A stretch of 64,000 nucleotides of DNA, taken from assembly GCF_044324875.1 (NCBI RefSeq), contig NZ_CP172187.1, one strand, 5' to 3'. A program made the translations under genes and the position numbers. The stretch comes from Escherichia coli (GTDB lineage Bacteria; Pseudomonadota; Gammaproteobacteria; Enterobacterales; Enterobacteriaceae). Positions within the stretch are counted from its first letter, which is position 1; each line of letters opens with the position of its first letter. Positions 23,060 through 23,362 of this stretch are shown piece after piece. The notes under the pieces are model-generated. The model ran no database searches. It had not been told where the DNA came from and saw nothing but the letters and a program-made list of their open reading frames with translations.

Positions 23060-23130
23060 AGAAGATAGCCCCGTAGTAAGTTAATTTTCATTAACCACCA
23101 CGAGGCATCCCTATGTCTAGTCCACATCAG
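23060..23130 (-). ncRNA. sok-like antisense RNA (position approximate)
   Basis: Inferred from hok/sok architecture: antisense to the mok start region; boundaries not determined. Confidence 0.3.
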
Positions 23131-23325
23131 GATAGCCTCTTACCGCGCTTTGCGCAAGGAGAAGAAGGCCATGAAACTACCACGAAGTTCCCTTGTCTGG
23201 TGTGTGTTGATCGTGTGTCTCACACTGTTGATATTCACTTATCTGACACGAAAATCGCTGTGCGAGATTCGTTACAGAGACGGACACAGGGAGGTGGCGG
23301 CTTTCATGGCTTACGAATCCGGTAA
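23113..23325 (+). CDS. mok-like overlapping reading frame (modulator of hok translation)
   Basis: 70 aa ORF overlapping hok in a different frame, as in hok/sok loci. Confidence 0.4.
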
Positions 23326-23329
23326 GTAG
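23171..23329 (+). CDS. hok: Hok/Gef-family membrane toxin (52 aa)
   Basis: Translation [52 protein letters not shown] read directly. Confidence 0.85.
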
Positions 23330-23335
23330 CAACCT

Positions 23336-23362
23336 GGAGGCGGGCGCAGGCCCGCCTTTTCA
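23336..23362 (+). terminator. GC-rich hairpin followed by T-run after hok
   Basis: AGGCGGGCGCAGGCCCGCCTTTT. Confidence 0.5.

Follow-up and report, generated by a model that had tools for sequence, protein, structure and literature searches.

An R1-type hok/mok/sok module in the leading region of an F-like plasmid of Escherichia coli

The stretch of Escherichia coli DNA analysed here (64,000 nucleotides of contig NZ_CP172187.1, hereafter the window) carries two overlapping reading frames, hok and mok, together with a ribosome-binding site for the shorter of them:

23171–23329 (+): 52-aa hok toxin gene, coding for a small hydrophobic membrane peptide (open reading frame list, Pfam, NCBIfam and exact UniRef identity)
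23113–23325 (+): mok, a frame of 70 aa that overlaps hok at an offset of 1 (open reading frame list, Pfam, NCBIfam and UniRef)
23156–23161 (+): hok Shine-Dalgarno (SD) sequence AAGGAG, 9 nt 5' of the hok ATG, read directly

A preliminary description of this DNA, made from its letters, had reported a 52-aa Hok toxin frame with an overlapping mok frame, and both are borne out by profile searches, well above what chance would give. The Hok frame matches Pfam PF01848 HOK_GEF (E=1.2e-21; 76.5 bits, cutoff 22) and the NCBIfam model NF007279 'type I toxin-antitoxin system Hok family toxin' (126.4 bits, cutoff 73), and its peptide is exactly UniRef HOK_ECOLX. The mok frame recovers Pfam DUF5431 (E=2.6e-41) and the NCBIfam equivalog NF010277 'modulator of post-segregation killing protein' (151.6 bits, cutoff 110), its product being exactly UniRef FLMC2_ECOLX, 'Protein FlmC homolog'; by exact-sequence look-up each of the two peptides occurs on at least 1000 contigs. 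Translation of hok is coupled to that of mok (PMC9841398). The hok Shine-Dalgarno region, GCAAGGAG, is unchanged in all members of an alignment of 14 homologues that range from 100% down to 80% identity and comprise F flm and plasmids of E. coli, E. albertii, Klebsiella and Enterobacter; the mok SD, GAGG at 23102–23105, corresponds to positions G105 and A106 of the homologous system of plasmid R1. Neither tblastn nor a self-blastn of the module found a second Hok-like frame or a second module copy in the 64-kb window.

RefSeq/PGAP annotates identical DNA differently: Hok is called as a 41-aa product from an internal GTG (23204–23329, +) and not as the 52-aa frame, mok appears as an incomplete pseudogene (23113–23262, +), and a minus-strand 'hypothetical protein', WP_001299721.1, is placed across the hok promoter and leader (22903–23091, −). 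The 74-aa minus-strand open reading frame at 22903–23127 was considered as a gene and rejected as probably spurious, as it has no NCBIfam match and hairpin indels interrupt the frame in the homologues.

The hok/sok locus of R1 is the paradigm of type I toxin-antitoxin systems. Ten published R1 oligonucleotides match the window exactly, including those that set both ends of Sok, the +1 of the hok mRNA and the 3' end of its truncated form, and all 16 of the named R1 positions agree as well (G4, C5, T6, G64, A70, G71, C72, C74, G105, A106, A169, T204, G311, G345 and C358 from Le Rhun et al., PMC9841398, and T208 from PMC13047441; the oligonucleotides and positions come from these two papers and PMC1635323). 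In particular, the primers of Faridani et al. for the synthesis of R1 Sok-RNA, 64 nt as published, and of mature hok mRNA (PMC1635323) place Sok at 23122 to 23059, the 5' end of hok at 22998 and the 3' end of its truncated form at 23358 (nt 361). Five further R1 oligonucleotides agree without a mismatch, and the northern probes FB178 and FB213 have exact matches in the window. The numbering of Le Rhun et al. fits the window only with +1 at 22998, which fixes the start of the hok mRNA at that nucleotide. Codon-level descriptions agree too: A169G has been given as a synonymous change in Mok (E18E), and the window has GAA at mok codon 18; T208G has been given as V12G in Hok, and the window has GTG at hok codon 12. 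An R1 'C345' that would be a mismatch was dismissed as a typographical error of a figure legend, the main text giving G345 (PMC9841398), which matches the window. The identity to R1 thus covers about half of the 398-nt mRNA through the oligonucleotides, plus 16 single positions.

On this coordinate frame the promoter and the regulatory boxes of the mRNA could be placed as follows:

22962–22991 (+): hok/mok promoter, −35 TGGTCA (22962–22967), 18-nt spacer and −10 TATGAT (22986–22991), scoring 9/12 in the promoter scan
22998–23395 (+): full-length hok (mok-hok) mRNA, translationally silent, with +1 from the R1 hokF primer and the 16/16 named positions
22998–23007 (+): tac (translational activator) box GGCGCUUGAG, the mRNA 5' end, pairing with 23384–23393 in the MFE structure
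23384–23393 (+): fbi (fold-back inhibition) box CUGAAGCGCC, pairing with tac in the MFE structure
22999–23026 (+): metastable 5' hairpin of the nascent transcript, from the predicted fold of the first 30–60 nt
23064–23109 (+): ucb/anti-SD : mok-SD hairpin, the anti-SD at about 23064–23073 pairing with the mok SD at 23102–23105 in the full-length MFE structure

We take the full-length mRNA to be 398 nt long, as for R1. This length is consistent with the blunt pairing of the 5' and 3' ends in our fold and in PMC1635323. The −10 element (TATGAT, against TATAAT) keeps a constant distance to +1 in 14 of 14 homologues, even where the sequence upstream differs. Folding of the 398-nt RNA (22998–23395) gave an MFE of −175.9 kcal/mol (z=−8.25), with the molecule closed by the tac/fbi pairing of 5' GGCGCUU.GA with 3' UC.AAGCGCC. 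The tac box is unchanged throughout the 14 homologues (helix 1), and so is the fbi core CTGAAGCGCCTTTAT despite its varying flanks; the support for tac/fbi is therefore strong conservation and strictly without covariation, since neither box varies. The tac suppressor positions G4, C5 and T6 have been described for R1 (PMC9841398), as has the concept of a metastable hairpin in the nascent RNA (PMC9841398, its ref. 12), and here the first 30–60 nt of the hok mRNA are predicted to fold as.((((.((((((.....)))))).).))) at −13.7 kcal/mol. Further downstream, R1 positions A70, G71, C72 and C74 as well as G105 and A106 fall in the hairpin between the anti-SD and the mok SD, for which the homologues show paired insertions on both arms.

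When the full-length structure was mapped onto the alignment of 14 homologues, 90% of its positions were paired, against 36–44% in slid controls, with 14 compensatory pairs, and none of 500 shuffles attained the observed values. Forcing the published open tac/ucb pairs (4-72, 5-71 and 6-70) costs 12.2 kcal/mol in the 398-nt RNA and 0.2 kcal/mol in the 361-nt RNA; the unconstrained MFE structure of the 361-nt RNA is without the tac/ucb open fold, which lies 0.2 kcal/mol higher. These predicted folds and energies reproduce the logic of the published mRNA switch, with the refolding after 3' truncation supported as energetically plausible and not as proven.

On the opposite strand lie the antisense gene and its promoter:

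23059–23122 (−), 5' end at 23122: Sok antisense RNA, 64 nt, with the R1 sokR and sokF primers matching exactly at 23102–23122 and 23059–23080 (PMC1635323)
23129–23157 (−): sok promoter, −35 TTGCGC (23157 to 23152), 17-nt spacer and −10 TATCCT (23134 to 23129), read from the minus strand

The preliminary description had proposed sok by position only, as an antisense RNA of about 65 nt; the R1 primers now place it at 23122 to 23059, with a length of 64 nt that agrees with this estimate, and both the fold and the conserved promoter point the same way. The RNA is predicted to have a single-stranded 5' tail of about 11–12 nt (23122 to 23112), a long stem-loop and a U-rich 3' end. It folds at −26.5 kcal/mol (z=−6.7), against −12.5 for its mirror on the sense strand, which is weaker because it has A·C mismatches where the antisense RNA has G·U pairs; the same asymmetry recurs in all 14 homologues, with −21 to −27 kcal/mol for the antisense hairpin against −10 to −15 for the sense mirror. 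The geometry of the sok promoter is likewise kept in every one of the 14 (−35 TTGCnn, an exact 17-nt spacer, and −10 nATnCT with A2 and T6 invariant). A generic promoter and terminator scan flagged neither this promoter, which matches the consensus at 7 of 12 positions, nor the two 3' hairpins described below; all of these came to light when the sequence was read directly, folded and compared. No stretch of the locus varies more among the 14 homologues than the Sok tail and its target, which are complementary to each other; such a pattern would be expected of the specificity determinant of an antisense RNA. Taken in isolation, the sokT target hairpin (23108–23134) has no significant stability (z=−0.5).

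The Rfam family RF01794, 'sok antitoxin', has one match in the window (88.9 bits against a gathering threshold of 59, E=1.6e-18, full model 1–157), on the plus strand at 22997–23173, with its consensus ending at the hok AUG. This family models the leader of the hok mRNA and not the antisense Sok RNA (23059–23122, −), and the match taken at face value would misplace sok in both strand and extent.

Two hairpins lie at the 3' side of the mRNA:

23339–23356 (+), processed mRNA end at 23358: 3' road-block stem-loop, with the R1 hokR primer matching 23345–23358
23399–23436 (+): second hairpin with a U-tract, directly 3' of fbi, from its fold and conservation

The first of these consists of GGCGGGC-GCAG-GCCCGCC followed by UUUU (23339–23360), has a folding energy of −17.1 kcal/mol and shows five compensatory pairs among the 14 homologues (helix 15). 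R1 positions G345 and C358 fall in its stem, and the R1 mutations G345A and C358A in the stem abolish the truncated (Tr-hok) mRNA (PMC9841398). By this correspondence with R1, we read the hairpin as the 3' road-block that would end the processed, translatable 361-nt Tr-hok mRNA, and not as a transcript terminator: the full-length RNA reads through it and extends at least 37 nt beyond. Thus, the hairpin of the preliminary description is present, but the label of terminator that it had been given does not hold in light of the R1 literature. The second hairpin (23399–23430, followed by the U-tract) has a folding energy of −24.7 kcal/mol (z=−5.6) and is 99% paired among the homologues, where one change is compensatory and six are one-sided (helix 16); with its U-tract it is probably the intrinsic terminator of the primary transcript. 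The end of a 398-nt mRNA (23395) would fall just before this hairpin, and two full-length hok mRNA bands have been reported (PMC9841398).

The functional unit accordingly spans about 22962–23436, from the hok promoter (22962) through the mRNA +1 (22998) and the fbi box (23384–23393) to the further hairpin (23399–23436). The interval of 23060–23362 that had been proposed for it marks a real locus with bounds that are too narrow at both ends. It begins at the Sok 3' end and stops before fbi, lacking the hok promoter, tac and the metastable hairpin, and the unit reaches about 100 bp farther upstream (promoter, tac box and metastable hairpin) and about 75 bp farther downstream (fbi box and second hairpin). 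The boxes left out in this way, 5' tac and fbi, are those whose pairing silences the full-length mRNA.

The closest relatives of this unit allow the allele to be named. Against R1 hok/sok (parB; GenBank X05813; T1TAdb TA07123), with which it shares the Hok peptide, the transcript ends, tac/fbi, the anti-SD/SD pair, the 64-nt Sok and the road-block hairpin, no difference appears over the compared part, that is about half of the 398-nt mRNA and the named positions. The flmA/flmB/flmC locus of F (NC_002483, about 62.7–63.3 kb) has the same architecture and occupies the same position, after psiA in the leading region and between Frpo2 and Frpo1; its tac, fbi, hok leader 1–60 and 3' hairpins are identical or nearly so, and a few residues differ in Hok. 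Overall identity to the window is about 90%, and most of the divergence falls in the Sok/FlmB gene and the region that it targets (window 23060–23125), where the hairpin has a paired indel of 3+2 nt and the 5' tail another sequence; there is also a 2-nt indel before fbi. The differing tail and hairpin suggest that F flm has a different antisense specificity. More distant hok homologues of IncF plasmids (80–85%; Klebsiella, Enterobacter and E. albertii) keep tac, fbi, the anti-SD/SD hairpin, the geometry of the sok promoter and both 3' hairpins, but differ in the Hok coding sequence, the DNA upstream of the promoter and the hypervariable Sok tail and target.

It could be argued from this that the locus is flm ('F leading-region maintenance'), the F-plasmid homologue, rather than the R1 system, given that it lies directly after psiA in the leading region and between two Frpo repeats as flm does in F (PMC9849209), and that the exact Mok peptide bears the UniRef name of an FlmC homolog. 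Nevertheless, the R1-specific oligonucleotides match exactly across the stretches where F flm differs, and the half of the mRNA that they cover includes every such stretch. We hence consider the flm assignment very improbable and, from the sequence agreement, identify the locus as the R1 allele at the flm position; the question is in any case one of naming within a single family with the same mechanism.

The allele is widespread. The 561-bp module occurs at 99% identity or more in 1,438 PLSDB records, many of them 100% identical over the full length, and at least 5,000 PLSDB records contain some match to it; among complete E. coli genomes, 3,162 of 5,426 have a match, which is almost always plasmid-borne. 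Several other plasmids carry 5'-truncated copies of hok/sok that are 100% identical from window position 23087–23096 or thereabouts, each in a record that has at least one further match; they are without the hok promoter, tac and anti-SD and are cut through the Sok hairpin.

Such truncated copies are one reason to ask whether the present locus might itself be a decayed or silent relic without killing activity, as is the case for most hok loci on the E. coli K-12 chromosome. Inactivity has been reported for many hok loci (PMC1635323; bioRxiv 10.1101/2025.08.07.668861), and on identical DNA mok carries the RefSeq flag of an 'incomplete' pseudogene. This flag, however, is an annotation artefact of overlapping frames, for the 70-aa mok scores above the NCBIfam equivalog cutoff. 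Both frames are intact, the promoter, tac, fbi, anti-SD, SD and the Sok gene with its promoter are all present, the locus is without IS interruption, and it is identical to functional R1 at every checked position. A relic is in our estimate the least probable of all the readings considered here. Together these observations support the preliminary assignment to a hok/mok/sok-type post-segregational killing module, and, with the ten R1 oligonucleotides and the 16 of 16 named positions, they argue that the locus is almost certainly the R1 allele of the hok/mok/sok type I toxin-antitoxin module, complete and apparently functional, acting as a post-segregational killing (plasmid addiction) device.

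In light of this correspondence, we propose that the module would work as follows. The weak promoter at 22962–22991 would give rise to a stable 398-nt mok-hok mRNA starting at 22998, whose 5' end would be kept in the metastable hairpin as long as the RNA is nascent. In the finished mRNA, tac (22998–23007) would pair with fbi (23384–23393) and the anti-SD (about 23064–23073) would sequester the mok SD (23102–23105), a closed form to which neither ribosomes nor Sok could bind. Slow exonucleolytic trimming from the 3' end would then halt at the stem-loop at 23339–23356 and yield the 361-nt RNA; with fbi lost, tac would be freed to pair with the anti-SD, thereby exposing the translation-initiation region of mok together with the loop that Sok targets. 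In a plasmid-carrying cell, the unstable 64-nt Sok (23122 to 23059, −), made from its own promoter (23157 to 23129), would bind through its 11-nt 5' tail and block translation of mok, hence also the coupled translation of hok, before the duplex is cut by RNase III. In a plasmid-free cell Sok would decay first, so that the stored mRNA would be translated and the 52-aa Hok would damage the inner membrane and kill the cell.

Hok toxicity, the instability of Sok against the stability of hok mRNA, cleavage by RNase III and the post-segregational killing phenotype are experimentally established for R1 (PMC9841398, PMC1635323), and an R1 locus with an inactivated sok promoter kills in a toxicity assay (PMC9841398). 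The RNA half-lives, 3' trimming, RNase III cleavage, translational coupling, Hok toxicity and plasmid stabilisation would carry over to the present locus by its sequence identity to R1 only.

The surroundings of the module are those of an F-like plasmid and include:

22172–22891: psiA, upstream of hok and in the same orientation (Pfam PsiA, 8.5e-39)
12163–12811, 15522–16169 and 23583–24232: direct repeat of about 650 bp in three copies

Upstream of the module are a ParB-like gene, psiB and psiA, and hok is oriented as psiB and psiA with sok opposite; downstream follow a DUF932 gene, an SLT transglycosylase and then traM and traJ/FinP. This is the canonical leading region of IncF plasmids (psiB-psiA-hok/sok-...-oriT-traM), with the layout that flm has in F. 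The second and third copies of the repeat share a 300-nt core that is 98% identical, and hok/sok sits between them. The repeats show about 91% identity to two regions of F that precede ssb and ygeA (F Frpo2 and Frpo1), and their minus strand, the transferred one, is predicted to fold as single-stranded DNA into a hairpin of about 330 nt (−138 kcal/mol, z=−10.7). From this resemblance and predicted fold, we assign the three repeats as Frpo-type single-strand promoters, which bracket the block ssb...psiB-psiA-hok/sok.

Several other elements were noted in this neighbourhood. A group II intron lies inside the plasmid ssb gene, with an ltrA reverse transcriptase/maturase frame at 16840–18741 (+) and Rfam RF00029 at 18767–18887; in the near-identical plasmid pEC958, ssb fragments are annotated on both sides of the intron. 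Because of the intron, Frpo2 and Frpo1 lie about 8 kb apart, compared with about 5 kb in F. Rfam models with matches above their gathering thresholds are AS-pc01 (12932–13033, −), just downstream of the first Frpo-like repeat, AS-traG (49209–49294, −), AS-traI (61274–61350, −) and the FinP/traJ 5'UTR (27181–27290). Between the psiA stop and the hok promoter there is a small palindrome, CACGG-ATTTC-CCGTG (22906–22920), which the scanner rated as terminator-like only on the minus strand.

The position between two Frpo-type repeats with a near-identical core (15522–16169 and 23583–24232) raises the question whether the same biochemistry serves a locally selected role, namely (a) guarding psiB-psiA against a deletion between Frpo copies, (b) early establishment after entry, or (c) exclusion of phages. 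The first of these was anticipated by Couturier et al., who proposed that the toxin-antitoxin genes flmAB between the Frpo repeats of F may guard the intervening segment against recombinational deletion (PMC9849209), and toxin-antitoxin genes are enriched in leading regions (PMC11541004). Also in favour of such a role, hok is oriented as psiB and psiA and could be transcribed from the transferred strand, with sok opposite. On the other hand, hok's own promoter requires double-stranded DNA, deletion of F Frpo2 had no effect on conjugation frequency (PMC9849209), and exclusion of T4 by R1 hok/Sok was not reproduced (PMC13047441). The classical post-segregational killing role is compatible with all three candidates, and we regard a locally selected role as possible though unlikely.

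One specific form of this idea concerns the first minutes after conjugation. The scan detected no plus-strand terminator between psiA and hok, so that read-through from psiA into hok is possible. As hok lies downstream of the Frpo2-like single-strand promoter and could be transcribed from the incoming T-strand, and as the template strand for Sok would be absent until the complementary strand is made, position and orientation might give the hok mRNA a head start on entry; a new transconjugant would then be addicted from its first minutes, and recombinational loss of the segment between the Frpo copies would be penalised. We infer the head start from strand geometry alone and hold this proposal to be speculative, somewhat less likely still than a local role in general. 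A transcriptome paper on early conjugation (PMC12672017) does not mention hok, sok or flm.

The module is thus real, complete and ordinary, found at its usual site in the leading region of an F-like conjugative plasmid, and it is already known, its sequence, architecture and position all being as in the literature. As an allele present in thousands of sequenced enterobacterial plasmids, often base for base, it has no value as a discovery. It does mark the window as the leading region of an IncF-type plasmid, and for annotation its value lies in exact coordinates for the Sok RNA gene and for the regulatory boxes of the mRNA, which automated pipelines miss or mislabel.
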